Of a stretch of DNA of 64,000 nucleotides, positions 32,997 through 54,419 are shown piece after piece. Position 1 is the first letter of the stretch. Each line of letters starts with the position of its first letter. This stretch comes from Myxococcota bacterium (lineage in GTDB: Bacteria; Myxococcota_A; UBA796; CAJQPC01). The notes under the pieces are model-generated. The model did no database searches, had not been told where the DNA came from, and worked only from the letters and a program-made list of their open reading frames with translations. Location: positions 64,001-128,000 of the forward strand of contig DASCPX010000071.1 of the NCBI GenBank assembly GCA_036012755.1, read 5' to 3'. Made by a program: the position numbers and the translations under genes.

Positions 32997-33014
32997 GTCT
33001 CGTCTTCCTCGGTG

Positions 33015-33060
33015 GGCATTATAATGCATATATGCCAGAGGGGCATTGCATTATGTTGCG
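33015..33060. promoter_or_regulatory. Divergent promoter with two TGCA-N6-TGCA-like operator boxes
   Basis: GGCA-TTATAA-TGCA (33015-33028, perfect palindrome GCATTATAATGC containing TATAAT) and TGCA-TTATGT-TGCG (33047-33060), in an AT-rich patch. Confidence 0.7.
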
Positions 33061-33102
33061 CTGTCGGTAATCCTCGGCAGGTCAGCCAAGCCAGGAGCAC
33101 CT

Positions 33103-34275: not shown

Positions 34276-34300
34276 GCAGCCCACCAGCGCGGAGAGAGCC

Positions 34301-35602: not shown

Positions 35603-36411
35603 TGGCCTACGCAGCCGGAGTGGACGTCGGGTCCACACAGACCAAGGCCGTGATCATCGACGAGGACGGCGAGATCGTCGCCTGGGCCCTGGAAATGACC
35701 GGAGCCAACGTCGTGCAAGCCGCCCAGAAGGTCTTCCTCTCCGCCTTGAAGGAGGCGGGCCTGCAGGAGGAGGAGGTCGAGTACGTCATCGGCACTGGCT
35801 ACGGCCGCTACCGCGTGACCTTCGGAAACGCCCAGGTGACCGAGATCTCCTGTCACGGCCGCGGAGCCGTCCACCTCTTCCCGAACACCCGCACGGTCGT
35901 CGACATGGGCGGACAGGACACAAAGGCCATCCGCGTGAGCGCGGCGGGCGACATCGTCGACTTCTGCATGAACGACAAGTGCGCGGCGGGCACCGGGCGC
36001 TTCCTCGGGGCCGCCTCCAGCGCCCTGGACATCCCCCTGGACGAGCTCGGCGACGTGGCGCTGCGGTCTACACGACCGGTGAAGATCAGCACGACCTGCA
36101 CGGTCTTCGCCGAGTCAGAGGTCCTCGCCTGGTTGGGCAAGGGCAAGAAGGTCGAGGACATCCTCTGGGGCGTCCACACCTCCATCGCCGTGCGCTCGGG
36201 CGCCCTGATGAGGCGCGTCGGCACCGAGTCCGAGATCACCTTCACCGGCGGCGTCTCGCGCAACCCGGCGATGGTCGAGGCCCTCGAGCAGCGCCTCGGC
36301 CAGAAGGTGAACATCAGCGAGGAGTCCCACTACATGGGCGCCCTCGGCGCCGCGCTCTTCGCCCTGGACCACATCCAATCCCACCGCAGCCCCACCCAGG
36401 AGACCGCATGA
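35602..36411 (+). CDS. bcrA: Benzoyl-CoA reductase ATPase (activator) subunit, short A/BzdQ-like
   Basis: [47 protein letters not shown]; 269 aa. Confidence 0.8.
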
Positions 36412-37223
36412 TCACCGCAGGCATCGACGTCGGCTCCACCTACACCAAGGCGGCCATCTTCGACGGAGAGCAGATCCTGGCGACGGCGCTGGCCCCGACC
36501 GGCTTCCGCCTGAGTTGGGTGGCGCGGAAGGTCTTCGACGAGGCCCTCGCGGACGCAGGGCTCGATGAGACACAGATCGAGTACGTCATCTCCAGCGGCA
36601 TCGGCCGCCATCAGGTGGGCTTCAAGGACCTCGCCGTCACCGACCTCACCGCCAGCGCGCGGGGGGCGAACTACTTCTTCCCCGGAACCAGGACCGTACT
36701 GGATGTCGGCGGGCAGACCATGAAGGCATCACGGATAGCCGGCAGCGCCAAGGTCGAGGCCTTCCGTCTCAACGACAAGTGCGCGGCCGGCACCGGCGCC
36801 TTCCTGGAGAAGACGGCGCGCTACATGGGCTACAGCACAGAGGAGATCGGTCCGCTGATGGCGACGGCCAGGGAGACCGTGCCCATCTCCGGAGTCTGTG
36901 CCGTGTTCGCCGAGTCAGAGGTGATCAACCACCTCTCGCTGGGCACCCCACCCTGCGACATCATGCAGGGCGCCATCGAGTCCCTCACGGGCCGCTCGGT
37001 GCAGCTCATGAAGCGCGTCAAGGCCCAGCCGGAGTACACGCTGGTGGGCGGGATCCTGCGCTTCCACACGATGGCCGACGCCGTGCGCGAGCGCCTCGGC
37101 GCAGACGTGAACGTGCCCCCAGGAGAGCTCTGCCAGTTCGCGGTCGCCGTGGGCTGCGCCATCCTGGCCCAGATCCGCCTCCGCAAGGTCCGCTCCGAGC
37201 AGGCCGCCTCGCCGGCAGCATGA
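36408..37223 (+). CDS. bcrD: Benzoyl-CoA reductase ATPase subunit, D/BzdP-like
   Basis: [44 protein letters not shown] overlap. Confidence 0.8.
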
Positions 37224-38990: not shown

Positions 38991-39110
38991 TCAGGGTTCT
39001 CGGCAGTCGCTCTCGCAGCCCCCGCAGCCGGCGCAGCGCTTGTCTCGGAAGAGCAGCCCGAAGCCGACACAGCCAAGGACGAGGGCGACGATGGCGACGA
39101 CGTGGGTCAT
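38991..39110 (-). CDS. 39-aa TM plus CxxCxxCxxxC microprotein ending the rnf operon (absent from the ORF track)
   Basis: MTHVVAIVALVLGCVGFGLLFRDKRCAGCGGCESDCREP*; ATG overlaps the rnfA stop (ATGA). Confidence 0.75.
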   Translation of the reverse strand: MTHVVAIVALVLGCVGFGLLFRDKRCAGCGGCESDCREP

Positions 39111-39685
39111 GTCGAGAACAGCCCCGCGAAGCCCATGAAGGCCAGGGACAAGAGCCCGGCGATGATGAGGCTGAGCGCCGTCCCCTTGACCACCGACGGA
39201 ACCGAAGACAGGCGTGCTTCGACCCGCAGACCGGCCATCAGCGCCAAGGCGAGGGTGAAGCCGCCGCCTGCGCCGAGGGCATAGACGATGCCCTCGACGA
39301 AGCCGTACTCCTTGTTCGTCTGGAACAGGGCCAGCCCAAGGATCGCGCAGTTGGTCGTGATGAGCGGCAGGAAGATGCCCAGGGCCTCGAAGAGCGGGGG
39401 GGCGATGCGCTTGATGAACATCTCGACGAACTGAACCGTGCTGGCGACGACCACGATGAAGCTGATGAGCTTCAGATACGGCGCGTGGGGCAGCACGAAG
39501 GCGTTGAGCACGCTGGCGCAGATCGAGGTGACCAACATGACGAAGGTGGTCGCCGCGCCCAGGCGCAGGGCCGTGTCCACGCGGTTCGAGACGCCGAAGA
39601 AGGGACAGAGGCCCAAGAAGTAGGCGAGCACGAAGTTGTTCACCAACAAGGCGCTCACGAAGATCCAGAGGAGCTGGCCGGTCAC
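39107..39685 (-). CDS. rnfA: Rnf complex subunit A
   Basis: LVNNFVLAYFLGLCPF, LGIFLPLITTNCAILG, LSLAFMGF. Confidence 0.95.
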   Translation of the reverse strand: MTGQLLWIFVSALLVNNFVLAYFLGLCPFFGVSNRVDTALRLGAATTFVMLVTSICASVLNAFVLPHAPYLKLISFIVVVASTVQFVEMFIKRIAPPLFEALGIFLPLITTNCAILGLALFQTNKEYGFVEGIVYALGAGGGFTLALALMAGLRVEARLSSVPSVVKGTALSLIIAGLLSLAFMGFAGLFST

Positions 39686-40272
39686 GCTGCCCTCCTCTGT
39701 TCGGCGACGTTGAAGACGAGCAGGATCAGCCCGAGCATGATGAAGCCGCCCGGGGGCAGGATCATCACGATCCAGGGCTCGAAGTTGTCGCCGAAGAGCG
39801 ACAGCCCAAACAGCGAGCCGTTGCCCAGGATCTCTCGCACGGCGCCGAGGCAGAACAGCGCCAGGGTGAAGCCGAGCCCCATGCCCACGGCGTCGAACAG
39901 GGCGAGCTTCACCGTGTTCTTGCTGGCGAAGGCCTCTTGCCGGCCGAGGATGAGGCAGTTCACGACGATCAGCGCGATGAAGGCCCCGAGCTCCTTGTGG
40001 ACCTCTGGCAACAGCGCCATGAGCGTGTAGTCGGCCACGGTCACGAAGGTGGCGATGATGATGATGTAGGTCGTGATCCGGACCGGCTTCGGGATCCACT
40101 TCCGCAGGGCGGACACCAGCACGCTCGAGCCGGTCAGCACGAAGAAGGTGGCCCCACCCATCGCCAGCGCGTTCACCGCCGAGTTCGTCACCGCCAGCAT
40201 CGGGCACATGCCCAGGACCTGCACGAAGACAGGGTTGTCCCTCCAGATGCCCTTGACCAGCTCGGCGTTCAC
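39682..40272 (-). CDS. rnfE: Rnf complex subunit E
   Basis: NPVFVQVLGMCPMLAVT, LIVVNCLILGRQE, ILPPGGF. Confidence 0.95.
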   Translation of the reverse strand: MNAELVKGIWRDNPVFVQVLGMCPMLAVTNSAVNALAMGGATFFVLTGSSVLVSALRKWIPKPVRITTYIIIIATFVTVADYTLMALLPEVHKELGAFIALIVVNCLILGRQEAFASKNTVKLALFDAVGMGLGFTLALFCLGAVREILGNGSLFGLSLFGDNFEPWIVMILPPGGFIMLGLILLVFNVAEQRRAA

Positions 40273-40829
40273 TGCAACCGCTCCAGCCAGGTGTCGTTCG
40301 ACGCGTTGATGATCTCGACCACCGCCTTGGAGGAGATGGTGGCGCCGGTGATGGCGTCGATCTCGTTCGGCGTGGTGGCCTTGCCCTTCTTCACGGCGAG
40401 GATGTCCGGCTCCACGACGAGGTCCTCGAACTGCGCCACGAAGACCTCGTCCTTGATGATCTTGTCCCCTAGCCCCGGGGTCTCCCGGCTCTCGAGGACA
40501 CGCATCCCGATCACGCGGTCCCGCGCCGGGTCGTAGCCATAGAGCAGGCTGATCGTGTCCTGGAAGCCCGGTCCCTTGGCCGGGATGGCGTAGCCGAGCA
40601 GCTCCCCCGCGGCGTTGTGGGCCGCGTAGACGGCCCCATCGTCGAAGTCCACGCGCTCCATCGTGGTGGCGTGCGGGACGACCTCGAAGACCGCCCGCTG
40701 CAGGGCCTCGGCCCGGTTCCGCTCGATGCGCGGCAGCGTGATCTCGTAGACCCCGACGATGGCCAGGCCCGAGACGAGCCCGGCGACGCCGAGGGTCAGG
40801 ATCATGCTGAAGCTGCTGTCGCTGCTCAT
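40269..40829 (-). CDS. rnfG: Rnf complex subunit G
   Basis: N-terminal TM, ETPGLG, DAITGATISS flavinylation motif. Confidence 0.93.
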   Translation of the reverse strand: MSSDSSFSMILTLGVAGLVSGLAIVGVYEITLPRIERNRAEALQRAVFEVVPHATTMERVDFDDGAVYAAHNAAGELLGYAIPAKGPGFQDTISLLYGYDPARDRVIGMRVLESRETPGLGDKIIKDEVFVAQFEDLVVEPDILAVKKGKATTPNEIDAITGATISSKAVVEIINASNDTWLERLQ

Positions 40830-41812
40830 CTCGGAGCCTTCTCGTGACCGAAGGGCCGGGGCTGGGTGTACTGCTCGATGAGCGGTGAGGCCGCGTTCAT
40901 CAGCAGGATGGCGTACATGACCCCCTCTGGGAGCCCACCGAAGCGACGGATGAGGACGACCAGGGCGCCGATCCCGATGCCGAAGACCCAGGCGCCGCGT
41001 GGCGTGGTGGGCGAGGTCACCGGGTCGGTGGCCATGAACACGGCGCCGAAGAGCAGGCCGCCGGACAGAAGCATGAAGTCCACCGGCGGGTGGGTCTCGC
41101 CGACCAGGGCGAGCAGGGCGGACAGTCCTGCCACGGAGCCCAGGATCGCGACCGGGATGCGCCACTGAAAGGCGCGCTTCCAGAAGAGGTAGAGCCCGGC
41201 GACGAGGATCAACGCGGCGCTGGTCTCGCCCAGGGACCCGGCAGTCCCGCCCAGGTAGAGCTCGGTCAGCCCGGTGAGCTCTCCGTCGAACTTCTGGAGA
41301 CCCAAGGGCGTCGCCGAGGACACCACGTCGACGTGCATGAAGGGGATGGCGAAGGTCGCCTCACCGAAGCGCATCCACGCCCCTTCCGTCGGAGGGGCCC
41401 AGGTCGTGAGGGTGATCGGGAAGGCGGCCTGCAAGAAGGCGCGGCCTACCAGCGCGGGGTTGAAGAGGTTCTGCCCCAGCCCGCCGAAGACGAGCTTGCC
41501 GAGCCCCATGCCTGCGGCACCGCCCAGGGCGGCCATCCACAGCGGCACACCGGGCGGCAGCGTGAGGCCGAGCAAGAGCCCCGTGAGCACCCCGCTCCAG
41601 TCGCGCACGGCCCCGCGTCCCGAGATCGCCCACTCGGTGCCGACGGCCCCCGCGATGGCCGCCAGGATGACCAGCGGCGCGGAGGGACCGAAGAACCACG
41701 TCGCCGCCACCACCAGCGGCAGCGCCGCATAGAAGACGTGGCGCATGATGCCGGGGGTCGTGGCGTCGGCCCGGACGAAGGGCGCCGGACGCAGCGTGAG
41801 GCGGCGACTCAC
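40826..41812 (-). CDS. rnfD: Rnf complex subunit D
   Basis: FGGLGQNLFNPALVGRAF, SSATPL flavinylation site, GSLGETS, FMATDPVTSP. Confidence 0.95.
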   Translation of the reverse strand: MSRRLTLRPAPFVRADATTPGIMRHVFYAALPLVVAATWFFGPSAPLVILAAIAGAVGTEWAISGRGAVRDWSGVLTGLLLGLTLPPGVPLWMAALGGAAGMGLGKLVFGGLGQNLFNPALVGRAFLQAAFPITLTTWAPPTEGAWMRFGEATFAIPFMHVDVVSSATPLGLQKFDGELTGLTELYLGGTAGSLGETSAALILVAGLYLFWKRAFQWRIPVAILGSVAGLSALLALVGETHPPVDFMLLSGGLLFGAVFMATDPVTSPTTPRGAWVFGIGIGALVVLIRRFGGLPEGVMYAILLMNAASPLIEQYTQPRPFGHEKAPR

Positions 41813-43098
41813 TTTCGGGACCGGAGCGTCCGCTTCGCCGAACGGATGAGCTGGACGAGCGGGATCTCGGAGGGGCATGCCCAGGTGCAGGCGCCGCACT
41901 CCATGCAGTCCAGGACGTTCCAGTTCTCCATCTCGTCGACGAACCCGGCCCGGGCGAGGCGGCCGAAGAGCGAGGGGTTCAGCTTGTAGCCGCAGGCCTC
42001 GAGGCAGCGGCCACAGCGAATGCAGGGCCCGGCCTCGGCGAGGTCGAGGTCACCCTCTCGGAACACCAGCAGACCGCTGGTTCCCTTGAGGACCGGGGCG
42101 TCCAGCGCCGTGACGGGCATGCCCATCATCGGTCCGCCCATCACGATCTGGACTCCCTCCTCTGGGGCGCCGCAGTGGGCGAGCACGTCCCGGATGGGCG
42201 TGCCGATGGGGACCCGCAGGTTGGCAGGTCGGGCCACCGCGGGTCCGGACACCGTCACCGTCCGGTCGATCAGCGGGATTCCCAGCTCGATCCAGTCGGC
42301 GATCGCCGCCATCGTGCTGACGTTGTTGACCACCATCTCCAGATCCAGCGGGAGCTTGCCAGCTGGCACCTCCACGCCGAAGAGGGCGTGGATGAGCATC
42401 TTCTCGGCGCCCTGGGGGTACTTCACCTGGACCGGCTGCACCTTGATGCTTCGCTGTCCCATCGCTCCCAGCAAGGCCGCTACCGCGTCCGGCTTGTTCT
42501 CCTCGACCCCGATGACAGCGCGCTCCGCGCCAAGGGCCTCGACCACCAACTCGACGCCACGCAGCACGCGGTCGGGCTGCTCGACCATGGTGCGGTGATC
42601 GCTGGTCAACAGCGGCTCGCACTCGCAGCCGTTGAGCACGAGATCCTTGCAGCGACGACCCTCTGAGAGGGAGTACTTCACGTGAGAGGGAAAGGCCGCG
42701 CCGCCGAGGCCGACGATGCCACCCGCCTGCACCAACTCGACGAAGTCCTCGCCCTCGGGCGCCTCCGTCACCAGCTCCTGGCTGTCCCAGGGGTCGGCCT
42801 CGATCTCGATGGCGGGCAAGAGCGAGCCCGTGGGGTGGCGGTGGCGCTGGACGCTGCGGACCCGCCCGGTGACGGGGCTGTGGAGCGAGGTGGACACGAA
42901 GCCACCCGGAGAGGCGATGAGCTGCCCCCGGCGGACCTCGTCCCCGACATCGACGAGCGGCTTGCTCGGAGCGCCGATGTGTTGGCCGAGCAGCATCACG
43001 AAGCGCTGGCCGAAGGGCATGCGCCGGACCGCAAGGTGCGCCGTCCTCCCCTTGTCGTCGTGCGGGTGGACGCCGTGCTCGAAGGTCGGGGAGCTCAC
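41809..43098 (-). CDS. rnfC: Rnf complex subunit C
   Basis: QHIGAP, AGGIVGLGGAAFPSHVK, NGCECEP, KYPQGAEK, GGPMMG, CIRCGRC and CMECGAC. Confidence 0.95.
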   Translation of the reverse strand: MSSPTFEHGVHPHDDKGRTAHLAVRRMPFGQRFVMLLGQHIGAPSKPLVDVGDEVRRGQLIASPGGFVSTSLHSPVTGRVRSVQRHRHPTGSLLPAIEIEADPWDSQELVTEAPEGEDFVELVQAGGIVGLGGAAFPSHVKYSLSEGRRCKDLVLNGCECEPLLTSDHRTMVEQPDRVLRGVELVVEALGAERAVIGVEENKPDAVAALLGAMGQRSIKVQPVQVKYPQGAEKMLIHALFGVEVPAGKLPLDLEMVVNNVSTMAAIADWIELGIPLIDRTVTVSGPAVARPANLRVPIGTPIRDVLAHCGAPEEGVQIVMGGPMMGMPVTALDAPVLKGTSGLLVFREGDLDLAEAGPCIRCGRCLEACGYKLNPSLFGRLARAGFVDEMENWNVLDCMECGACTWACPSEIPLVQLIRSAKRTLRSRK

Positions 43099-46000
43099 TG
43101 CTCGACTCCTTCCAGGATCCCCGCGAGCGACATCAGCCGCCCCTCCAGCCGGTCGGCGAAGCGCTGGTCCTCGTCGGCCTTCAGCTCCGCGCGATCTTCC
43201 TCCAGCTCGGACCGCAGCTCGGCCTCGCGGGCTGCGTACTGAGCCTCCAGCTCCTGGCGGAGGCCAGGCAGGGCCCGGAGCTCGCTCAGCACGCCGTCGG
43301 TCTCGCTCTCCAGGCGCAGCTCGGCCAGGGGCGCTCCGGGGGCGAGGCGCCACAGCGGCCAGCGGCCCATGGCCACCACCTCGGCGGAGGTGGGTATGGC
43401 CGAGGAGCTGTCCGCAGGGGTCGGTGCATGGATCCGGACCACCGCAGGACCATCGTGGGCCAGGGCCTCGAGGAGGACCTCCGCGAGGTGGTCGGGGTGG
43501 CCGACCGCGGTCTGCGCGACCAAGGCCCCCCGGCGCCACAGGGCCAGCAGCTCCAGCTCGGCGGGATCCTGGTGATCGCAGAGGATCAGGACCTTCAGCG
43601 GCAGCTCCCCGAGGTTCGCGCGAAGCAGCTCGTCACCGCCCACGACGACCACCGGCGGCGGGTGGCACGCCGGTGGCTCCTGCTTCAGCTCCCTGCACGC
43701 GGCGCGGAGGTGCTCATCGCCCTCATCGACCTGTGCGAGCTGCCCCTTCGCCAGCCCCTCGGCGAGCTCCATCGCGCGGCCGGCGCCAGCGACGACGACG
43801 GGCACCTGGAAGGGGTTGTAGGGAAACTCGATGCCCCAGTCGGCCGCCAGCTCAGGTGCCAGGACCAGCCCGAACCGAGCCCGCCCCAAGCCACGGGATC
43901 CCTTCTCGAGGCGCTGGCGCAGCCGATCCAGATCTTCGCAGAGGGCCGCCCGGACGCGCAGTCGCGCACGGTCCTTCGGGGTCAGGGCGCCGTCGGTGCT
44001 GACGTCGCCCTCTGCCAGCGCCTGCTCGAGCGTCGCTCCGCTGGGGAGCGCGCGGGCGAGCTCGTCGCGGACCGCAGCGCCGAGCTCCGCCCTGACGGCC
44101 CGCAAGCGGCGCACATGGTCGACGAGGCGAGGCTGCAGCGCCGCCTCCGCCATCGCCAGGGCAGCCCGGAGGGCCAGCTTGGCTCCAGAGCCGGGAGCCC
44201 GGCCGTTTCCGCCGGCGAGAGCGAAGGCGCAGTGGCGTGTCAGCAGGCGGGCGGCCAGCGGTCCGAGACGAGGCTCCAAGGTCTCCATCGTCGGGCCGGC
44301 GGTGTCCGGCAGACCCTCCCAGACGCTCCAGGCCCGGCGAGCGGCCACCACCCGCTCGGTCGTCTGCGGCTGCATCGTCAGCGCCACGGGCTCACAGGCC
44401 GCGGCGCAGGCCCCGCAGGCGGTGCAGGTGGCCGGATCGACGACCAGCGACAGGAGGATGTCCTCTGACCAGGGGGCGGACAGCGGCAGGCCATCCAGGG
44501 CAGCAGCTCCAGCTTCTATGGCCTCTTCGGGGGCGGCCACGCCAGCCTCGCGCAGGGTGGTCCCCGCGTCAGGCCTGACCTGCTTCCGCACGGCCTTCGC
44601 GAGCTTCTTCGCCAGGGGCTTCAGCGGCGAACCACCAGCCTTGACCGCGACATCGACCAGCGCCCGGCTGTCGATGGCCACGACCCCGATGGCCGCCTCC
44701 GGACACGCGACCCAGCAGTCACCGCAGCCCGTGCACGCATCAGGTGCGAAGGCAGGCAGCGACTCGCGGGTGGCAGAGAGATCGTGGAAGGTCGAGGTCA
44801 GCGGCGGGATGGCGCCGAGCGCCAGCGCCGGATCGGGGGTGAGCGGGGCACCCTCGACGAAGGGCTTGCCCACGCTGCCCCAGAAGCGGCGCACGCCGTC
44901 GGGGGCGGCGTCATCTCCCAGCTCGCGAACGACCAGCGGGGGAAGGCGACCTGGAAGCTCGGGGCGCTGGGTTCGGGCAGGCGGTCCGCCGTCCCAGGCG
45001 CTCTCGAAGTCCTCTAGCCCGTCGTCACCGTAGAGCTCTCTCCAGACGGTCCTGGCGTCGCGCTCCTTCCACTCCAGGCCCTGGGTCCGGAGCCACCCGG
45101 CGAGACCGCCGAGGACCGCGGCAGGAGACCCGTCGAGGTCCAGCTCGGCCCTGACCTTGTCGCCGGGGTCACCGTTGGGCGCGGGGGCCCAGTAGAGCCA
45201 GCGCCGGCGGCTGCGGACGTGACCTCCGACGAGGCGCTGCATGAGCTGGGCCGCTGGCCCGACGAGCTCTTCGGGCAGCGCCACGACGAGACCCTGGGGG
45301 GTGAGGGAGGTCTGCGAGCGCAGCCCCAGTCCAGCTGCCTTCGGGAAGCGCTGCCGCAGCTCCTCGAAGTGCGCCTGCTGGCGGGGATAGGCGCTGTCAG
45401 CGGGCGCGAAGTCGAGACCGAGGTAGACACGCGAAGAGAGCGGCGGAGAGAGGCAGGCCCCAAGCACGTCAGCCGCCGACAGGGGGAACCCGCCGGCTCC
45501 ACCCACCAGGGAGACCACCCGTCCCCTGGCGTGGGGGGCGACCTCGCGCAACAGCGGCGGCTCACTCGCGAGATCGCCGGCCACGCGCTCCATGACGAGC
45601 ACCGTGCGACCGCCGAGCCGTGTGTGCAGCTCCGTCGCCGGGAAGGGTCGAAGGCAGCGCACACCGATGACGCCGAGCTTGCGGCCACCGAGGACACCTT
45701 CGGCGACCTCGACGGCGGAGCCCTGGCTCACGATGACCGTCTCGGCGTTGTCGTCTCCAGCCCAGGACAGGGCGCCGAGGTGGCGTCCGGTGCGCTCACC
45801 GAGCCCCGCGAAGGCCCGGGCGACGAGACCCGGGACCGGCCAGTGGAGGTAGGGCTGGCGCGCAGCCGCGCCAAGGGCCCAGCTCTTGCGGCCCTGGGCG
45901 GCCCCGTGGAGCGCTGGGCGCTCGAGGTCGTGCCACAGCGGAACGCGACGACGGTCATCGCCGAAGAGCACGGACTGGGCGCGGGTCGGGCACTCGATCC

Positions 46001-46535
46001 GCGTGTCGGGCGAGCCGGAGAAGCCCGCTAGCAAGGCCTGATCCGGGAGGCGCAGGGTCTGGGGCGCCGCGGCGGTCTGATCGGCGTCCATTCCCACGAG
46101 CACCGGCAGAAGCGAGGTCTCGGCGATCTCCCGCGCGGCGATGCTCAGGTCGGCCACGTCCTGGACGTTGTGGGCCATGAGCTGCACGCAGCCGGCATCG
46201 GCCACGGCATGCCAGGCGTCATGCCCGGTGCCGCAGGCCACTGCGTGACCGGGGCCTCCTCGGCACACGACGTGCACGACCAGCGGCAAGGAGCGACCTG
46301 CCGCCCAGGCGAGCAGCTCGTGGGCTCCAGCCAGCTCGGGTCCGTCCAGCCAGGCGGTCGCTCGCAGCCCGGCCATGGCCGCCCCCACCGCCTCGGGCAG
46401 CGCGAAGCGCTCGGAGCCGAGCAGCTCCTCCGCCAGGGCCGCCGCCTCGTACCCCGTGAGGACACCGATCTCGCCCCGTTCCTCTGGAGCCTTCGTCCGA
46501 AGACCCTCGACCCACCGCATGATCCGCTCACGCAT
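43095..46535 (-). CDS. Degenerate homodimeric-PFOR-like protein (1146 aa) with two ferredoxin motifs and a C-terminal coiled coil
   Basis: PFOR domain-I/II similarity (HDAWHA, NVQDVAD, CLRPFP, VMER); CTGCGDCWVACP and CTACGACAAAC; PYNPF. No YPITP; the CxGC position reads APGS; the ThDP motif is reduced to GGDE. Confidence 0.8.
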   Translation of the reverse strand: MRERIMRWVEGLRTKAPEERGEIGVLTGYEAAALAEELLGSERFALPEAVGAAMAGLRATAWLDGPELAGAHELLAWAAGRSLPLVVHVVCRGGPGHAVACGTGHDAWHAVADAGCVQLMAHNVQDVADLSIAAREIAETSLLPVLVGMDADQTAAAPQTLRLPDQALLAGFSGSPDTRIECPTRAQSVLFGDDRRRVPLWHDLERPALHGAAQGRKSWALGAAARQPYLHWPVPGLVARAFAGLGERTGRHLGALSWAGDDNAETVIVSQGSAVEVAEGVLGGRKLGVIGVRCLRPFPATELHTRLGGRTVLVMERVAGDLASEPPLLREVAPHARGRVVSLVGGAGGFPLSAADVLGACLSPPLSSRVYLGLDFAPADSAYPRQQAHFEELRQRFPKAAGLGLRSQTSLTPQGLVVALPEELVGPAAQLMQRLVGGHVRSRRRWLYWAPAPNGDPGDKVRAELDLDGSPAAVLGGLAGWLRTQGLEWKERDARTVWRELYGDDGLEDFESAWDGGPPARTQRPELPGRLPPLVVRELGDDAAPDGVRRFWGSVGKPFVEGAPLTPDPALALGAIPPLTSTFHDLSATRESLPAFAPDACTGCGDCWVACPEAAIGVVAIDSRALVDVAVKAGGSPLKPLAKKLAKAVRKQVRPDAGTTLREAGVAAPEEAIEAGAAALDGLPLSAPWSEDILLSLVVDPATCTACGACAAACEPVALTMQPQTTERVVAARRAWSVWEGLPDTAGPTMETLEPRLGPLAARLLTRHCAFALAGGNGRAPGSGAKLALRAALAMAEAALQPRLVDHVRRLRAVRAELGAAVRDELARALPSGATLEQALAEGDVSTDGALTPKDRARLRVRAALCEDLDRLRQRLEKGSRGLGRARFGLVLAPELAADWGIEFPYNPFQVPVVVAGAGRAMELAEGLAKGQLAQVDEGDEHLRAACRELKQEPPACHPPPVVVVGGDELLRANLGELPLKVLILCDHQDPAELELLALWRRGALVAQTAVGHPDHLAEVLLEALAHDGPAVVRIHAPTPADSSSAIPTSAEVVAMGRWPLWRLAPGAPLAELRLESETDGVLSELRALPGLRQELEAQYAAREAELRSELEEDRAELKADEDQRFADRLEGRLMSLAGILEGVEQ

Positions 46536-47361
46536 AGACTCGCTCCAAGACCGGGAACTGCTGGCCGGGGGCCCAGACGATGGCGCCGGTCGGGCAGCGG
46601 GCAGTGATCGCCGGGGTAGCGGGTCCACCACCGGCGTAGTCGACGACCGGCAGTCCATCGACCATGCGGATCAGCTCCTGTGGAGCGTCCTGGGCGCAGC
46701 GACCGCAAGCGTCGCAGGCGACTGCGCAGAGCGCCATGGCGGCCTCGCCAGCCAGCGGCGCGCTGCACTGGACCAGCAGCGCGTGCTCCAGCGGAGTCAC
46801 GTGGAAGAGGTCCCGCGGGCAGGCCTCGACGCAGTCTCCACAGGCAGTGCACTCGAGCACGTCGACCACCGGCAAGCCGTTTCGGTTCATCGAGATGGCG
46901 TCGAAGCCGCAGGCGACCTCGCAGTCGGCGAGGCCGAGGCAACCCCAGGGGCAGGACTTGCCGCCGCCGGAGAGCACCGCCGCCCCCGAGCAGCTGTCGA
47001 AGCCGCGGTACTCGGCGAGCCTTCGGGCCTGGCCGTAGCCCCCCGCGCAGGCCAGGCGGGCGACGCGCTTCGTGGCCTCTCCCGCGTCGACGCCGAGGAG
47101 TTCGGCGACCGCCTCGATGCCCTCTGGGCTGTTGACCGTGCAGTCGGAGGGTGTGTGGGCGCCGGCCAGGAGCTTCACCGCGAAGGCCTTGCAACCCGGC
47201 TCCCCGCAGGCACCGCAGTTCGAGCCCGGCAGGGCCTCGTCGAGGGCCTCCAGCCGAGGGTCCTCGGCCACCCGCAGGAAGCGCCACGCCACCGTGAGCA
47301 CGACCGCGAAGAACAGCGCGATCCCGGTCATGATGCCGATCGCCAGCAGGACGTTCGTCAC
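46528..47361 (-). CDS. rnfB: Rnf complex subunit B (polyferredoxin type)
   Basis: N-terminal TM, LPGSNCGACGEPGC, CLGLADCEVAC, CTACGDCVEACP, CDACGRC, CPTGAI. Confidence 0.92.
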   Translation of the reverse strand: MTNVLLAIGIMTGIALFFAVVLTVAWRFLRVAEDPRLEALDEALPGSNCGACGEPGCKAFAVKLLAGAHTPSDCTVNSPEGIEAVAELLGVDAGEATKRVARLACAGGYGQARRLAEYRGFDSCSGAAVLSGGGKSCPWGCLGLADCEVACGFDAISMNRNGLPVVDVLECTACGDCVEACPRDLFHVTPLEHALLVQCSAPLAGEAAMALCAVACDACGRCAQDAPQELIRMVDGLPVVDYAGGGPATPAITARCPTGAIVWAPGQQFPVLERVYA

Positions 47362-49322
47362 TTCGGAGGCGGCCCGGGGTAGATGCATTTCGCGGGGCAC
47401 TTCTCCGCGGCGGCGACGAGCTCGGCGTGGGTGCCGGCGGCGAGGTCACCGATGGTGGCCTGCTTGTTCTCGTCGTAGATGAACAACAGCGGGTTGATCT
47501 CGAGGCAGTCGTTGCAGCTCGTGCAGAGAGCGCTGTCGATCCAGGCCTCTTCATCGTCATCGTCGTCCTCGACGACGGGCTCGGGCTCGGAGGCCGCAGG
47601 TTCGGGCTCGTCCTCCACCACCGGCGCTGTCACGGCGCGCGGTGGCGGACGCACCGCCGGGGCGGCTTCGCCGTCGATCAACACCGAGGCGAGGCGCTGT
47701 ATTGCCTCTCGGGCAGCCTCGACGCGGAGTCGGGCGAGCTCCTCGCCGTGGACCTCTGCGAGGGCAGCCTGCTCCGACTCGCCCTGTCGCCGGGCCTCTT
47801 CGCGAGCCTGCGCCGCCGCCTGGCGGGCGTGCTCGTTGGCGACGCCCCCCAGCTCCCGGAGGTGCCGCCAGGTGCGCCGCCGGTCGGCGATCGCCAGCCG
47901 CAGCGCGTCCGAACAGCTCTGGGGGCCGTCGTTGGTCGCGACCTCGCCCTCCGGATCGGGCTGGAAGTGGTGCGCAAGCGCCGGGTCGAGCAAGGCGTAG
48001 TCGGCGAAGGTGAAGCCCGTCGACCAGTCCTCCTCTGGCTCGGGGTTTCCAGAGACGTCCATGGCGGCGGCCCAGCTCTCACCCGCCGAGGGGTCGTAGC
48101 GGAACAGGGGCAGGGCCCGGGCGTCGACCGCTGCGCTGGCGGTGAGCCAGGCGCCGATGGGCAGTGTCTCCCCATCCAACAGCCCGCTGGCCACAAGGTG
48201 AAGCGCCGGCCGCAGCCCGCCCAGCGCTGCCCGGAAGCCCTCCCACAGGTGCTCGTGACGAGCAGGGGTGGACTGCTGGACGAAGGCCTGTCGCATGCTG
48301 ACGGCGAGCAGGCCCAGCTCGACCCGGTGCCCGGCCAGCGGATCCTCTCCCGGCGCGAGGCCGGGGTTGCGGGAAGGCTGGACCTCCGCGAGGATCTGCA
48401 GGGGGCGACCGGAGGCGAGGAGGCGGATCAGCGCGCCGAGCTCGCCAGATGCGAGGGTGTCCGCGTCGGTGACCACGATGATGGTGGGCAACAGCGCGGC
48501 CTCCGCCTCGCCGAAACAGCGCCAGTCGAAGGCGTGGAGCAGCGGCTCGTGCCGCTCGGGATCCCAGGCATCGGCGAGCTCCAGCCTGGCGGCCCGCAGG
48601 CCTCCCAGGGCCAGGGCGAGCTCCTGCGCCGCCACGTCGAAGCGGGCAGCAGCCGTCGCGCAGGCCTCGTCTCCGCCAGGCACGACGATGACCGCCGGAC
48701 CGCAGAGGTGGAGCTGCTCGATCAGTGACCGGATGCGCGCCCGGCGCTCTGGCGGCATCGCGAGAGTGCCCCGTCGACCCACCATCGTGGCGAGCGCGCC
48801 AGCGTCCAGGCGCTCTCCGGTAGTCCCACCGAGTTCGCCGCTGCGGTCCTCGTAGGCTCGCTCGACCGCCAGCAGGCTGCGGAGGGCCTGCTGGGTGCTC
48901 TGGAGCTCGGCGACCAGGGCCCGCCGAACGGGCAGCGCGTGTTGGCGCGCGGCCTCCTCGAGCAGAGCCAGCGCCGCCCCGGAGTCGTAGGACAGCAGCC
49001 TGCCTTCGGCTGGCAGCCCCTCGATGAGGTGCTCCAGCAGGGCCGCGAGCTGCTGATCGGGGCCTTCCCCCAGGCCCAGCTGTGCCCGCATCCGTTCGCC
49101 GGCGGCCCGGACGCAGTCACGAGGCGTTGTGCCCTCGCCCTCTCTCAGCGCGGCCTCCAGTCGGCCGAGGTTGTCGCTCAGCAAGGTGGAGCCGAGAGAC
49201 TCGGCGATGCCGCGGATGTGCTCGGAGAGAGGCTCTGGAGCTCCACCGTCCAGCAACAAGGGCCACGGCAGGCGCAGGCGCCCCGGGTCGGCGTAGGGTT
49301 CGAATGCGACGGGCAGGGTCAT
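47358..49322 (-). CDS. PFOR beta-domain-derived protein with a coiled coil and a C-terminal ferredoxin domain
   Basis: LGLLAV...AFVQQST, AVDARALPLFRYDP...GNPEPEEDW; C-terminal CTSCNDC...AAEKCPAKCIYPG; no GDG ThDP motif; GAGG SD before ATG 49322. Confidence 0.78.
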   Translation of the reverse strand: MTLPVAFEPYADPGRLRLPWPLLLDGGAPEPLSEHIRGIAESLGSTLLSDNLGRLEAALREGEGTTPRDCVRAAGERMRAQLGLGEGPDQQLAALLEHLIEGLPAEGRLLSYDSGAALALLEEAARQHALPVRRALVAELQSTQQALRSLLAVERAYEDRSGELGGTTGERLDAGALATMVGRRGTLAMPPERRARIRSLIEQLHLCGPAVIVVPGGDEACATAAARFDVAAQELALALGGLRAARLELADAWDPERHEPLLHAFDWRCFGEAEAALLPTIIVVTDADTLASGELGALIRLLASGRPLQILAEVQPSRNPGLAPGEDPLAGHRVELGLLAVSMRQAFVQQSTPARHEHLWEGFRAALGGLRPALHLVASGLLDGETLPIGAWLTASAAVDARALPLFRYDPSAGESWAAAMDVSGNPEPEEDWSTGFTFADYALLDPALAHHFQPDPEGEVATNDGPQSCSDALRLAIADRRRTWRHLRELGGVANEHARQAAAQAREEARRQGESEQAALAEVHGEELARLRVEAAREAIQRLASVLIDGEAAPAVRPPPRAVTAPVVEDEPEPAASEPEPVVEDDDDDEEAWIDSALCTSCNDCLEINPLLFIYDENKQATIGDLAAGTHAELVAAAEKCPAKCIYPGPPPK

Positions 49323-49329
49323 GTCCACC

Positions 49330-50283
49330 TCAGATGGCGAAGCGGTCGAGCTGGGTCTCCAGGGCGCTCAGCTTCTGTTCGGCGCTGGCTTCGATGCCGA
49401 TAGCGCTGTAGTCGTCGTAGACCGGCCGCGTGGCGTCCTTGAAGAGCAGCCCGATGGGCACGCAGTCCCTGCGATCGGCCAGCGCACGGGCGCCGGCGAG
49501 GTCGGACGGTGCGTGCGCCAGCTCGTTCTCGAAGCTGCGCTTCACAGCGTCGGGATTCGGGATGCCGTCTGCGTCCGAGAGCACGAGGATCCTCTCCGGC
49601 TCCTTCTGCAGCTGGGCGAAGACGTGATCGGTGTAGGTGGGGCAGCGCTGGAGGATGCGGACGAAGGACAGCCCGCGGTGGTCGTGGGCCGCCTTGAGGG
49701 TCTCGTAGAGATGGGGCGGGTTCCAGTCGACGGTCTGGGCCACGAAGGAGGCGTTGGTCATGCCGAGCGTGGTCGCCAGGGGGTCCATGGCGGGCAACCA
49801 GGCACCCCGAGGATGGGTGTTGGTCTTCTCGCCTGGCTCCGTGGTGGGCGAGGTCTGCTTCTTGGTGAGGCCGTAGATGTTGTTGTCGAACAACAGCACG
49901 ACCATGTTCATGTTGTAGCGGATGGCGTGCAGCCAGTGGCCGGCGCCGATGGAGCAGCAGTCGCCGTCACCTGTCGCGACCCAGACGTCCAGGTCGGGGC
50001 GGCGGCACTTGATTCCCTCCGCGACGGGCAGGGCGCGACCGTGCAGACCGTGGAACCCGTAGGTGCCCATGTAGTGGGGGAAGCGGCCGGCGCAGCCAAT
50101 CCCCGACACGCACACGACCTTCTCCGGGCGCAGCTGCTTCTCGCGAAGGAGCCGCTGCACTGCGCTCAGCACGGCGAAGTCGCCGCAGCCCGGGCACCAG
50201 CGCCCTGTTCCGCCCTCGTAGTCCTCGAGGGTGAAGTAGCGAGGCGGGACCTCCATGGACCAGTCGTCCTTGAGACCGAACAT
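49330..50283 (-). CDS. korB: 2-oxoacid:ferredoxin oxidoreductase beta subunit
   Basis: WCPGCGD, SGIGC, HGR, GDGD...DNNIYGLTKKQTSPT, QRCPT. Confidence 0.92.
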   Translation of the reverse strand: MFGLKDDWSMEVPPRYFTLEDYEGGTGRWCPGCGDFAVLSAVQRLLREKQLRPEKVVCVSGIGCAGRFPHYMGTYGFHGLHGRALPVAEGIKCRRPDLDVWVATGDGDCCSIGAGHWLHAIRYNMNMVVLLFDNNIYGLTKKQTSPTTEPGEKTNTHPRGAWLPAMDPLATTLGMTNASFVAQTVDWNPPHLYETLKAAHDHRGLSFVRILQRCPTYTDHVFAQLQKEPERILVLSDADGIPNPDAVKRSFENELAHAPSDLAGARALADRRDCVPIGLLFKDATRPVYDDYSAIGIEASAEQKLSALETQLDRFAI

Positions 50284-52142
50284 CAGACCTCCAAGCGGGC
50301 GAGGATGGCTTTGTGGACCTGGTCGGGGGACAGGGGCTGGCCGGGAACGGTGCCCCAGCAGTCGATGTCCAACAGGGTGCTGGCGCGCAGCATCCAGGCC
50401 AGCTGTGCGTAGCGGCGGTTGTTCTCGTCCACGTACCCGCCGACGGTGTCCGCGAAGTTGATCTCGACGGTCATCACGCGACCGAAGCGGCCGAAGATCT
50501 CGTCGAGCCCGGGCTCCAGCGGAGAGAGGAAGCGCAGGTGGACCGCGGAGACGGCGTGTCCCTGTGCCCGAGCGCGGTCGACCGCCTCGTGGATGGCGCC
50601 CATCGTCGAGCCCCAGCCGACGACGAGGAGGTCACCCTCGTCGGCGCCGTAGACCTCTGGCGGCTTCAGCTTGCTCTGGAGCGCGGCCAGCTTGCGGCTG
50701 CGAAGCTCGCAGGAGACCTGGTTCGTGTCCGCGTCGTAGGCGACCTTGCTGTTGCGGGTGTGGGCGAGCCCGGTCAGCACGTACTCGCCACCGACCTGTC
50801 CCGGGATCGGGCGGGGAGAGACGCCGCTGTCGGCGTCCCAGGCGTAGGGCTCGAGCTCCGGGTCCCAGGCGGACTGGTCGATCGGAGCCGCGAGCCACTC
50901 CTCCTGGGGCTTCGGGCGATCGAAGGCGCTGACACCCGTGGCGAGGTTGGCGTCGGTGAGCAGGATGACGAGGGCCCGGAAGTCCTCGGCCAGCTGGCGG
51001 GCGAGCACGGTGAGGTGGAAGCAGTCCTCGATGGTGGCGGCTGCCAGGACGATCTTGGGTGCGTCTCCGGGGGCTCCGAAGACCGAGGCCAGCAGGTCAC
51101 CCTGCTCGACCTTGGTGGGCAGACCCGTCGAGGGACCACCGCGCTGGACCAGCACGAGGACGAGGGGGATCTCGGCCATGACGGCGAGACCGACGAACTC
51201 GGTCTTGAGCGCGAGGCCGGGGCCGGAGGTGATGGTGCAGGCGGTCTTGCCGGCGTAGGAGGCGCCGATCGCGAAGCCGATGGCGGCGATCTCGTCCTCT
51301 GCCTGGTGGAGGAAGCCACCAGCTTGGTCGAAGGTCCCGGCGAGGAAGTGCGAGGCGCTCGTGGCCGGCGTGATCGGGTACATGCTGACCAGGTCCATCC
51401 CGGCGGCCATGACCCCGAGGCCGATGGCCTGGTTGCCGTTCATGACGACCTGCGGCTCCGTCTGCTCGTGGCAAGGCACGATGAAGCGGTAGGGCACGTG
51501 CTCCAAGGCGAAGTCCCAGCCAGCGCGGACCAGGCGCTGGTTCGACTGGACGACCTGGGGCCCCTTTCGACCGAAGAGCATCGCCACCTCTCGGGTCGCG
51601 ACGTCCAGATCGCGGCCGTAGATGTGGCAGAGCATGCCGAGCACGAACATGTTCTTGCCGACCCGTGCGCCCCCGGTCAGCTCCAAACAGGCTGCGTCGA
51701 TGGACAGCTCGAGGACATCCAGGCCCATGCCCTTGAAGCGCTCGAGGGACTCCGCGTACTGCTCGCGGATGCTCTCGACGCGGTCGGTGGCCCACTTGTC
51801 CTCGAGCAGCAGGATCGTGCCCTCGCGGTAGGCCCGCTGGTCGATCCGGCTGAAGAGCACCTGCTCGTTGAAAGCGACGACGAGGTCCGCCTTGTCGCCC
51901 ATGTTCGTCATCGGGCGGTCGCCGATCCGAATGCGGATGCCACTGGCTCCGGCGGGGGAGCGGGCGGGCGGCTTGATCTCCGCAGGGATGATCTCCACCG
52001 TCCAGACGCCGTTTCGCATCTTGGCGCTGATGGCTCCAAAGGCCTGGCCGGCCTTCTGGGCGCCCTCACCGGAGTCGCTGACGATCTCGATGATGTGTTG
52101 GTCGACGGTCTGAGCCACCGCCTGTTCGCGCACTGCTTCCAT
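50283..52142 (-). CDS. korA: 2-oxoacid:ferredoxin oxidoreductase alpha(-gamma) subunit
   Basis: DSGEGAQ, YPITPAT, QAEDEIAA, TSGPGLALK, QRGGPSTGLPTKVEQGD, WGST; GGAGG SD. Confidence 0.93.
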   Translation of the reverse strand: MEAVREQAVAQTVDQHIIEIVSDSGEGAQKAGQAFGAISAKMRNGVWTVEIIPAEIKPPARSPAGASGIRIRIGDRPMTNMGDKADLVVAFNEQVLFSRIDQRAYREGTILLLEDKWATDRVESIREQYAESLERFKGMGLDVLELSIDAACLELTGGARVGKNMFVLGMLCHIYGRDLDVATREVAMLFGRKGPQVVQSNQRLVRAGWDFALEHVPYRFIVPCHEQTEPQVVMNGNQAIGLGVMAAGMDLVSMYPITPATSASHFLAGTFDQAGGFLHQAEDEIAAIGFAIGASYAGKTACTITSGPGLALKTEFVGLAVMAEIPLVLVLVQRGGPSTGLPTKVEQGDLLASVFGAPGDAPKIVLAAATIEDCFHLTVLARQLAEDFRALVILLTDANLATGVSAFDRPKPQEEWLAAPIDQSAWDPELEPYAWDADSGVSPRPIPGQVGGEYVLTGLAHTRNSKVAYDADTNQVSCELRSRKLAALQSKLKPPEVYGADEGDLLVVGWGSTMGAIHEAVDRARAQGHAVSAVHLRFLSPLEPGLDEIFGRFGRVMTVEINFADTVGGYVDENNRRYAQLAWMLRASTLLDIDCWGTVPGQPLSPDQVHKAILARLEV

Positions 52143-53582: not shown

Positions 53583-54419
53583 ATGTGGCTCTTGCTGGCG
53601 CTGTCCTGTGACCTCGAACCGGACCCCCTCCCGACCGAGGAGGCGGCCCGCGACGCGGACGCCGGCATGGAGGAGGCCGCGACACCACCGATGGTGCAGC
53701 TGCTCTACGACTACGCGTTCCTGCCAGATGTCCAGTACCGCCAGCAGCGCGTGCGCATGTTGCTGTGGCTCGTCCACATGGAGCTCTCCGAATACCAGCT
53801 GCGCGTGCTCGCAGAGGCCTGGACCACCGCCGAGACCGAGCGGGGGCGCATCGACGAGGCACAGCGCGAGATCGTCGCCCAGTACGAGCCGGAGCTGGGG
53901 GCGGTCTACGACCAGGTCTGGGAGAGGCTGCGCTCGGGGGCTTCGATCGACGACCCGGAGCTCCTGGCCCTGGCCGAGCCGCTCACAGAGGCCCGAATCC
54001 ACAAGGAGCAGGAGCGGGAGCTCCTGGCCCTGCGCTTCCAGGGCGTCGAGGCCGTCAACGCCGCCCAGAAGGACTTCCTGCGCTCGCTCTCGCCCCAGCA
54101 GGAGGCCAAGGTCGCGGACGCCAGCTTCTTCCTGCGCCACAAGCTGGATCCCTACGCGAACCCCGGGGACTTCAACGCGCTGATCGGGACCGTCTTCACC
54201 CCCGGCGACTACGCGACGCTGAAGCGCGGCTCCTTCGACCCCGAGACCGACCACCTCGACCTCGCAGGCCTGTGGTCCGATCCCGGCGACCCGGATCGCG
54301 AAAAAGGTGTCTTCCCCGACGTGCAGCGCGAGCTCGTGGTCTTCATGATCCTCCAGGAGCCGGCCCTGCCAGAGGCCATCGAGGCAGCGCTCAGCCGCTC
54401 GAGCCCGCCGGCTCCCTGA
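53583..54419 (+). CDS. Hypothetical lipoprotein, mostly helical
   Basis: MWLLLALSC; strong GC3 bias; no recognised domain. Confidence 0.7.
   Translation: MWLLLALSCDLEPDPLPTEEAARDADAGMEEAATPPMVQLLYDYAFLPDVQYRQQRVRMLLWLVHMELSEYQLRVLAEAWTTAETERGRIDEAQREIVAQYEPELGAVYDQVWERLRSGASIDDPELLALAEPLTEARIHKEQERELLALRFQGVEAVNAAQKDFLRSLSPQQEAKVADASFFLRHKLDPYANPGDFNALIGTVFTPGDYATLKRGSFDPETDHLDLAGLWSDPGDPDREKGVFPDVQRELVVFMILQEPALPEAIEAALSRSSPPAP

Follow-up and report, generated by a model that had tools for sequence, protein, structure and literature searches.

The 64,000-nt window analysed here (positions 64,001 to 128,000 of contig DASCPX010000071.1, assembly GCA_036012755.1, from a Myxococcota bacterium) contains an operon of 11 head-to-tail open reading frames (ORFs), all on the minus strand between window positions 38991 and 52142, in the order korA-korB-X-rnfB-Y-rnfC-rnfD-rnfG-rnfE-rnfA-microprotein. 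The operon combines a two-subunit 2-oxoacid:ferredoxin oxidoreductase (OFOR; KorAB), a complete Rnf complex and two proteins, termed X and Y, which derive from pyruvate:ferredoxin oxidoreductase (PFOR) and have lost its catalytic motifs. The best reading of these data, held with moderate confidence, is that the two pseudo-PFORs provide a dedicated electron path from Kor to Rnf. Gene order lends good support to a functional path of this kind. The G+C content of the region is ∼70%, and its genes and the domains discussed below are as follows.

korA, 50283..52142, minus strand: 619 aa, alpha subunit (domains III-I-II) of a two-subunit OFOR; Pfam POR, POR_N and PFOR_II
korB, 49330..50283, minus strand: 317 aa, beta subunit; Pfam TPP_enzyme_C
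X, 47358..49322, minus strand: 654 aa; core at residues ∼9-493, long helix at 497-549, tether and ferredoxin domain
X tether, 47538..47675, minus strand: residues ∼550-595, rich in Pro, Ala, Glu and Asp; predicted local distance difference test score (pLDDT) 43-52
X ferredoxin domain, 47373..47537, minus strand: residues 596-650, single cluster, Cys 600, 603, 606 and 642
rnfB, 46528..47361, minus strand: 277 aa, membrane-anchored polyferredoxin entry subunit; Pfam FeS and Fer4; the longest ORF reaches 47400
Y, 43095..46535, minus strand: 1146 aa; domains I, II, a remnant of III, V and VI, plus a long helix at 1090-1137; Pfam POR_N, PFOR_II and Fer4
Y domain V, 44316..44756, minus strand: two CxxCxxCxxxC(P) motifs, Cys 601/604/607/611 and 704/707/710/714
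rnfC, 41809..43098, minus strand: 429 aa; TIGR01945, 482 bits
rnfD, 40826..41812, minus strand: Pfam NQR2_RnfD_RnfE, 332 bits; the longest ORF reaches 41899
rnfG, 40269..40829, minus strand: 186 aa; Pfam FMN_bind
rnfE, 39682..40272, minus strand: 196 aa; Pfam Rnf-Nqr, 215 bits
rnfA, 39107..39685, minus strand: 192 aa; Pfam Rnf-Nqr, 184 bits
microprotein, 38991..39110, minus strand: 39 aa, one transmembrane helix, then a Cys-rich tail, CAGCGGCESDC

Overlaps of 1-8 nt were found at nine of the ten gene junctions. These comprise TGATG at korA/korB (1 nt), GTGA at X/rnfB, Y/rnfC, rnfG/rnfE and rnfE/rnfA, ATGA at rnfD/rnfG and rnfA/microprotein, 8 nt at rnfB/Y and, provided that rnfD starts at GTG 41812, GTGA at rnfC/rnfD. 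At the remaining junction, korB and X are separated by 7 nt, or by 1 nt with an alternative GTG start. Since the junction overlaps fix them, the start codons are most likely GTG 47361 for rnfB (277 aa) and GTG 43098 for rnfC (429 aa), and likely GTG 41812 for rnfD; these starts match the positions where alignments of homologues begin. The original prediction, made from the sequence alone, had proposed this gene order with its coordinates, the sizes of X and Y and a tight coupling of the genes, all of which agree with the ORF list, the Pfam and NCBIfam assignments and the junctions. It had also regarded rnfB as displaced, which proved incorrect, since rnfB-[Y]-rnfCDGEA is the order of an rnfBCDGEA-type operon with Y inserted. 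A chance layout is excluded because the identical gene order recurs across dozens of loci.

Judged by its sequence, KorAB is a competent two-subunit 2-oxoacid:ferredoxin oxidoreductase with thiamine diphosphate (TPP) and one [4Fe-4S] cluster, nearest to 2-oxoglutarate and broad-range enzymes. KorA scores above the cut-off of TIGR03710 (501 bits), and its nearest solved chain is that of the Magnetococcus 2-oxoglutarate:ferredoxin oxidoreductase (OGOR; 6n2n_A, E 4e-80). In KorB, the TPP motif is intact (GDGD...DNN, or GDGD...N..YG in the alignment to 5b46_B), as are the cluster cysteines in WCPGCGD, GIGC and CPTY (residue-level alignment to the same chain, E 5.5e-55). Both subunits can be aligned over their full length to known two-subunit OFORs, and together they hold the alpha-subunit domains, the TPP motif and the four cysteines by which such enzymes are recognized; Pfam detected no ferredoxin domain or delta subunit in either. 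The hints of specificity are mixed, KorA being nearest to an OGOR and KorB to a broad-range OFOR, and the equivalog models remained under their cut-offs.

According to its predicted structure, X is a dead scaffold resembling PFOR domain VI and the OFOR beta subunit, to which a [4Fe-4S] ferredoxin domain is appended on a flexible tether of ∼45 residues. In the AlphaFold2 (AF2) monomer model (mean pLDDT 88.7), residues 9-493 match residues 743-1170 of PFOR chain 6ciq_C with a VIA Z of 22.1 (301 residues aligned, root-mean-square deviation 5.6), and the core also resembles the beta subunits of oxalate and pyruvate oxidoreductases (Z 17.7-18.7, the highest for 5exd_F, the beta subunit of oxalate oxidoreductase). 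Sequence families detect only the C-terminal Fer4_13 module (PF13370, 28.1 bits against a cut-off of 24.5). The C-terminus is related to ferredoxin I of Desulfovibrio africanus (1dax, E 2e-4), and the last 57 residues of the model match 1fxr in Foldseek (TM-score 0.77). Motifs were counted in 81 X and 57 Y sequences aligned by MAFFT to the canonical PFOR of the genome under study. All four cysteines of the ferredoxin domain occur in 81 of 81 X proteins, while the Asn of the TPP motif and the Cys at each of the four positions of the proximal cluster (cluster A) occur in none. The linker ranges from 33 to 68 aa across the same 81 proteins (median 53) and consists to 75% of P, A, E, D, S, T, G and Q. 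In other Myxococcota, X has a long form of 1210-1420 aa, in which the PFOR_II domain is retained in three of five proteins scanned; the PFOR origin of X is confirmed by these long forms. One of them, of 1418 aa and with two Fer4_13 modules in tandem, lies in a korAB-X locus without rnf (L039, G191:C6).

Y retains the architecture of a full-length PFOR. Its AF2 monomer model (mean pLDDT 84.2) matches the entire PFOR chain 6ciq_B in Foldseek (E 6e-36) and thus displays the multi-domain PFOR fold, domain III being present as a low-confidence remnant. In PFOR, domain III is the CoA-binding domain. The TPP/Mg motif GDG...NTGGQ has been lost, in that its Asn is found in 0 of 57 sequences and the region shows GGDE followed by a deletion; the four cysteines of the proximal cluster are kept in 0, 0, 1 and 1 of the 57. 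Each of the eight cysteines of domain V, in which Pfam recognizes two Fer4 motifs, is present in 52-57 of the 57 proteins. This retention of cysteines alongside the loss of catalytic motifs argues for selection for electron transfer rather than for decay. No C-terminal ferredoxin was found on Y. The 81 X and 57 Y sequences of the alignments are all free of in-frame stop codons. A further Y, outside the alignments (L021, G257:C443), has a single in-frame stop at residue 1128 of 1452, which may mean that the gene is misassembled, split or a pseudogene. In most Y proteins the first 18 residues (46482-46535 in the window) form a conserved basic amphipathic peptide of the type MPSF..A.RL.RRL.G, followed by a variable linker and then domain I; the peptide is a candidate docking or membrane-binding helix.

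The folded parts of X and Y both end in a conserved W..LQELAG motif and a helix of ∼50 residues, which the canonical PFOR of this genome does not show in the alignment. A direct BLASTP comparison of X with Y was insignificant (E 0.03), and their kinship is visible only through profiles and folds. The derivation of both proteins from PFOR, and their loss of catalytic motifs with retention of ferredoxin-type cysteines, had been proposed at the outset; the former is borne out by the structural matches given above and the latter throughout the two families. The coiled coils proposed near the C-termini appear in the AF2 monomers only as long single helices (X 497-549, Y 1090-1137).

By Pfam and NCBIfam, the six-subunit Rnf set is complete, and this operon encodes the sole Rnf of the genome, the remaining Rnf/Nqr-type genes, a second pair, belonging to an Nqr. 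RnfB is of the long polyferredoxin type (9eri_B, E 5.5e-49; 7zc6_B, E 7.6e-44). A predicted complex of RnfB (residues 30-277) with Y (residues 410-1146) gave ipSAE values of 0.00 and 0.01; it was run with no controls and with the amphipathic peptide of Y omitted, and weighs neither way on binding. The microprotein has a small-ORF counterpart 3' of rnfA in 34 of the 40 loci with at least 200 nt of downstream sequence, and these counterparts consist of an MTHLLAILGL-type helix followed by CxxC-rich tails. No Pfam family matched the microprotein above its cut-off, and the weak matches below it were only to PF12669 (FeoB-associated Cys-rich membrane protein). NqrM, a small membrane Fe-S maturation protein, is encoded after the nqr genes, according to the passages on it in a 2025 Rnf/Nqr review (PMC12174285). 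Its profile, applied with hmmscan, matched neither the window peptide (E ≤ 10) nor 15 homologues (E ≤ 1), although so short a peptide scores poorly.

The layout is widespread across phyla, as judged from gene order. Of 401 genomes sampled from this phylum, 76 contain matches to the X profile, a count in which weak ferredoxin-only and giant-PFOR matches are included. Among 20 same-phylum loci drawn from the strongest of these matches, 18 have the order korA-korB-X-rnfB-Y-rnfC-D-G-E-A (one of them ending at rnfD with its contig). A scan with one genome per species yielded at least 599 pattern matches, at least 561 of which encode a relative of X or of a giant-PFOR C-terminus, and the following cross-phylum counts refer to the best 80 loci of the at least 599. 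These 80 derive from Gammaproteobacteria (Chromatiaceae, Thiohalomonadaceae, Thiodiazotropha, Sedimenticola-type and Thiomargarita/Beggiatoa-type bacteria), Planctomycetota (Phycisphaerae, Brocadiaceae and Isosphaeraceae), Myxococcota, SAR324, Kiritimatiellae and Opitutales. Of the 60 loci that extend 3.5 kb or more upstream, 52 have korAB directly 5' of X; of the 68 that extend 1.5 kb or more downstream, 54 have rnfB next after X; and of the 49 that extend 7.5 kb or more downstream, at least 38 have rnfB, Y and rnfC there. A few complete loci, L045, L088 and L096 among them, escape this count because of its distance limits. When 1.84 billion cluster representatives were searched exhaustively with the X profile, 3086 matched at E ≤ 0.001 and 1538 at E ≤ 1e-30, giant-PFOR C-termini included. 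The top 150 are all full-length X proteins of either ∼740-890 or ∼1260-1370 aa, and the 17 X relatives returned by a word-indexed protein search are a gross underestimate of the family. In 41 loci, KorA, KorB, X, RnfB, Y and RnfC have pairwise-distance matrices that correlate with r of 0.72-0.91, and the cluster is therefore inherited as a unit; partial mirror-tree correlations for the partner of X are weak (0.23-0.37) and undecisive. The conservation of X and Y with kor and rnf, for which the original prediction had advised a synteny search, is thus seen both within and beyond the phylum, and its surmise that similar clusters occur in other genomes holds for several bacterial phyla.

The X profile also matches the C-terminal third of ORFs of 1660-1770 aa. 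Six sister loci (L130-L135) have the order rnfB-(PFOR of 1675-1773 aa)-rnfCDGEA, some with korAB upstream. All six giant PFORs, when examined, were found to hold CxGCxE, TGC, GGDG...DTQVYSNTGGQ and the fourth cysteine, and in most of them the X profile extends over the C-terminus, including the ferredoxin part. With a hidden Markov model of the X core, scores were 299-606 bits for X, 270-308 for giant PFORs, 15-159 for Y, 20 for canonical PFOR and ∼0 for KorB. Between rnfB and rnfC there is always either Y or a giant PFOR, with overlapping stop and start codons. X and Y look like degenerate paralogues of an active, Rnf-embedded giant PFOR. Such an active PFOR with its own tethered ferredoxin would have joined an rnfBCDGEA-type operon, whereupon its duplicates may have decayed in complementary fashion, X keeping the tethered ferredoxin and losing domain V, Y keeping domain V and losing the ferredoxin, with catalysis handed over to KorAB. 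Two genomes, G277 (L023 and L134) and G234 (L026 and L135), contain both types of operon, and thus two Rnf complexes with different built-in partners. One genus has the order korAB-X'-rnfB-giant PFOR-rnfCDGEA, in which X' (517 aa) ends just past the long helix and is without ferredoxin. The short X-like gene (X') of genus g69 is matched with one to four in-frame TGA codons in six genomes (G260:C11:50252-51709, G130:C1:351861-353345 and G155:C22:304387-305943 among them), which may be due to frame crossing in the alignment, to broken genes or to recoding.

In many anaerobes and autotrophs, the ferredoxin and NAD pools are connected mainly by Rnf, whose RnfB subunit accepts electrons from ferredoxin and whose RnfC subunit reduces NAD+, a process coupled to ion transfer. 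To our knowledge, the characterised Rnf complexes all use free ferredoxin. Under a dedicated Kor-to-Rnf path, the electrons of KorAB would be carried by protein-bound Fe-S modules, instead of or besides free ferredoxin. The cluster of KorB would reduce the swinging ferredoxin domain of X, which would deliver electrons to the domain-V clusters of Y and/or to RnfB; Y would lie close to RnfB, and Rnf would reduce NAD+ with these electrons and translocate Na+ or H+ as it does so. Overall, the reaction would be 2-oxoacid + CoA + NAD+ ↔ acyl-CoA + CO2 + NADH, reversible and coupled to an ion gradient, and its reverse, carboxylating direction would be attractive for autotrophic sulfur oxidisers. The sequence data themselves establish the gene content, intact motifs in Kor and Rnf, the tether, the conserved order of the genes and, for X and Y, lost catalytic motifs beside retained Fe-S cysteines; from these we infer the contacts, the order from X ferredoxin through Y domain V to RnfB, and the direction in vivo. 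The arrangement of the genes suggests two modules, KorAB+X and RnfB+Y+RnfCDGEA, meeting through the tethered ferredoxin, rather than one indivisible complex, because korAB-X alone and rnfB-giant PFOR-rnfCDGEA alone both occur and because the strongest synteny pairs are korB-X and rnfB-Y (or giant PFOR). It is a bolder claim, and a doubtful one, that KorAB, X, Y, RnfABCDGE and the microprotein together form one stable, membrane-bound, ion-translocating 2-oxoacid:NAD+ oxidoreductase that works without free ferredoxin. If it were true, pseudo-enzymes would serve as the wire and a tethered ferredoxin as the moving contact of a single machine, which in reverse would use NADH and the ion gradient to drive succinyl-CoA's reductive carboxylation, giving sulfur-oxidising autotrophs and anammox relatives a hard-wired CO2-fixing step. 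The original prediction, of a membrane-attached supercomplex in which dead PFOR paralogues wire KorAB to RnfB, is supported in part.

Several observations weigh against a dedicated path. The genome also encodes a canonical PFOR (G000:C149, 1723 bits to TIGR02176), other OFOR-like genes and the E1 component of 2-oxoglutarate dehydrogenase; because of this last enzyme the kor-rnf unit would be an alternative route. The cell probably maintains a pool of free ferredoxin. Two of the 20 same-phylum loci, and several gammaproteobacterial ones, have korAB and X without rnf nearby, and X stands alone in some loci of the Thiomargarita/Beggiatoa type, so that X does not strictly need an adjacent Rnf. Neither korAB nor X is present in some operons that join an active giant PFOR to Rnf, so that an Rnf of that type needs no KorAB. 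X and Y have diverged 2-2.8 times more than KorA, KorB, RnfB and RnfC (41 loci), which would fit scaffolds and also weakly constrained accessories. Finally, the motif counts hang on MAFFT alignments of very divergent proteins, although motif blocks compared by eye concur with them.

The same separation of the modules in some genomes, together with the rapid evolution of X and Y, would be expected if the genes were merely co-regulated: Kor and Rnf would share a free ferredoxin pool, X would be a soluble ferredoxin-like carrier for KorAB and Y a loosely constrained remnant of accessory function at most, with neither a dedicated wire nor a complex. Pool-based recycling of ferredoxin is also how related clusters are read in the pertinent parts of two publications (PMC6315080 Text S1, PMC4287430). 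This account is a serious contender, yet we consider it unlikely, since the eight cluster cysteines of Y have been kept despite the loss of all catalytic motifs, Y or a giant PFOR always lies between rnfB and rnfC with overlapping codons, and the aligned X and Y genes are uninterrupted, the additional Y of L021 apart.

The complementary losses of X and Y could instead mean that they form a pseudo-PFOR heterodimer, descended from a homodimeric giant PFOR, with a mainly structural or regulatory role (assembly, anchoring, or redox or metabolite gating of Rnf) and outside the main electron flux. The W..LQELAG motif and long helix common to both proteins, and the PFOR_II domain surviving in some long-form X proteins, agree with this proposal. 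It is nevertheless improbable, for X occurs without detectable Y in some genomes (e.g., at loci L032 and L039), and the clusters that were kept point to electron transfer.

The following genes surround the operon.

Class-I benzoyl-CoA-reductase/2-hydroxyacyl-CoA-dehydratase-like set, 33046-37223, plus strand: four genes, convergent with the 3' end of the operon and 1.8 kb beyond it
HGD-D genes, 33046-34275 and 34301-35602, plus strand
BcrAD/BadFG-type ATPases, 35602-36411 and ∼36417-37196, plus strand
HTH (helix-turn-helix)-shikimate kinase fusion, 32151-33029, minus strand
Radical-SAM protein with extra Fer4 motifs (activase-like), 28480-29364, plus strand
Dynamin-family GTPase, 54391-56253, minus strand, upstream of the operon
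Dynamin-family GTPase, 57755-59692, plus strand, upstream of the operon

The benzoyl-CoA-reductase-like set is expected to need low-potential ferredoxin. In Thauera aromatica, KorAB regenerates ferredoxin for benzoyl-CoA reductase. The unit might thus chiefly make low-potential ferredoxin here, by Kor running forward or Rnf in reverse, for the ATP-dependent enzyme encoded by the two HGD-D and two ATPase genes. We regard this as quite improbable: among 100 related loci, an HGD-like neighbour was found only in L035, from the same family, and the operon has also been conserved where such neighbours are absent, which rules this out as its general role. That X or Y is still catalytic with a cofactor other than TPP is most improbable of all, for although five non-Cys residues remain invariant in the X core (H258, Q350, R402, N426 and W433), both families have lost the proximal cluster and show a deletion of the TPP diphosphate/Mg motif, and domain III of Y is a low-confidence remnant.

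A dedicated path from Kor to Rnf would have consequences for energy and carbon metabolism. An Rnf that has a 2-oxoacid oxidoreductase and protein-bound carriers of its own would constitute a new respiratory or carbon-fixing module and a clear case of pseudo-enzymes retained as electron wires. The potential difference between 2-oxoglutarate and NADH is ∼200 mV; this drop could be conserved as an ion gradient, and the hard 2-oxoglutarate or pyruvate synthase reaction could become possible in oxic or micro-oxic cells. The layout is found in ecologically important groups, namely sulfur-oxidising symbionts, large sulfur bacteria, Brocadiaceae and Myxococcota. Carbon-fixation models of tubeworm symbionts, as set out in the relevant part of PMC6315080 Text S1, count the embedded 'por' genes as active PFORs, and would have to be revised if these are of the dead type.

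The co-localisation of these genes has a published history. In the passages concerned, Dmytrenko 2014 (PMC4287430) locates PFOR genes of the Solemya symbiont between rnfB2 and rnfC2 and proposes that pyruvate donates the electrons, and Rubin-Blum 2019 (PMC6315080) describes korAB co-localised with a PFOR gene in tubeworm symbionts; Text S1 of the latter reports two rnf clusters co-localised and co-transcribed with por, which are read as ferredoxin recycling. In these passages both groups of authors treat the por genes as active enzymes working with a free ferredoxin pool. According to passages of an Endoriftia co-expression study (PMC11636981), korAB and a 'PFOR-like' gene fall together under sulfide limitation. 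In the pertinent sections of PMC4287430, PMC6315080 and PMC11636981, nothing is said of lost catalytic motifs, of a tethered ferredoxin or of a complex, nor is the layout described around the searched terms in a Thiomargarita paper (PMC4914600) or in the 2025 Rnf/Nqr review (PMC12174285). In the literature search, no Kor/PFOR-Rnf assembly was found described in biochemical or structural terms. The statement of the original prediction that it knew of no biochemical description has to be qualified, since the association of por or korAB with rnf, including co-transcription, had been noted in the passages of 2014 and 2019 just cited. What is new, as far as these sections of the literature go, is the dead-enzyme nature of X and Y; what was known before is the co-localisation.

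Compared with known systems, the Rnf encoded here resembles the clostridial and acetogen complexes (Acetobacterium woodii, 9ERI; Clostridium tetanomorphum, 7ZC6) in its six subunits, its long RnfB and the order rnfB...CDGEA. Those complexes draw electrons from free ferredoxin, whereas here a 1146-aa dead PFOR is placed between rnfB and rnfC, korAB and X are joined at the front of the operon, and a Cys-rich membrane microprotein follows rnfA. In its position after the last structural gene, its single transmembrane helix and its cysteines, the microprotein is like NqrM as portrayed in the passages of PMC12174285, although hmmscan gave no NqrM match for so short a peptide. KorA and KorB can be aligned from end to end with the Magnetococcus OGOR (6N2N) and the Sulfolobus OFOR (5B46), keep the TPP and cluster motifs intact and have no delta or ferredoxin subunit; those enzymes use free ferredoxin, whereas here a dead beta-like protein, whose gene is directly downstream, provides a dedicated ferredoxin domain in trans. 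With the PFORs of Moorella thermoacetica (6CIN) and D. africanus (1B0P), Y shares the whole fold and the domain-V clusters, and X shares domain VI. Unlike those enzymes, X and Y are without the TPP-binding motif and the proximal cluster, domain III of Y is degenerate, and both proteins have an extra long helix at the C-terminus. Related operons are of the rnfB-PFOR-rnfCDGEA type, such as rnf2 of the Solemya velum symbiont (PMC4287430) and those of tubeworm symbionts (PMC6315080), which, in the parts of these papers that deal with them, likewise have a PFOR-family gene between rnfB and rnfC. RnfB and RnfCDGEA are of the same type in both arrangements, and the X core is nearest to the C-terminal part of the giant PFORs. 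In the six sister loci, the embedded PFOR is intact and carries its own tethered ferredoxin, whereas in the present operon Y is dead, the ferredoxin resides on X and catalysis would come from KorAB.

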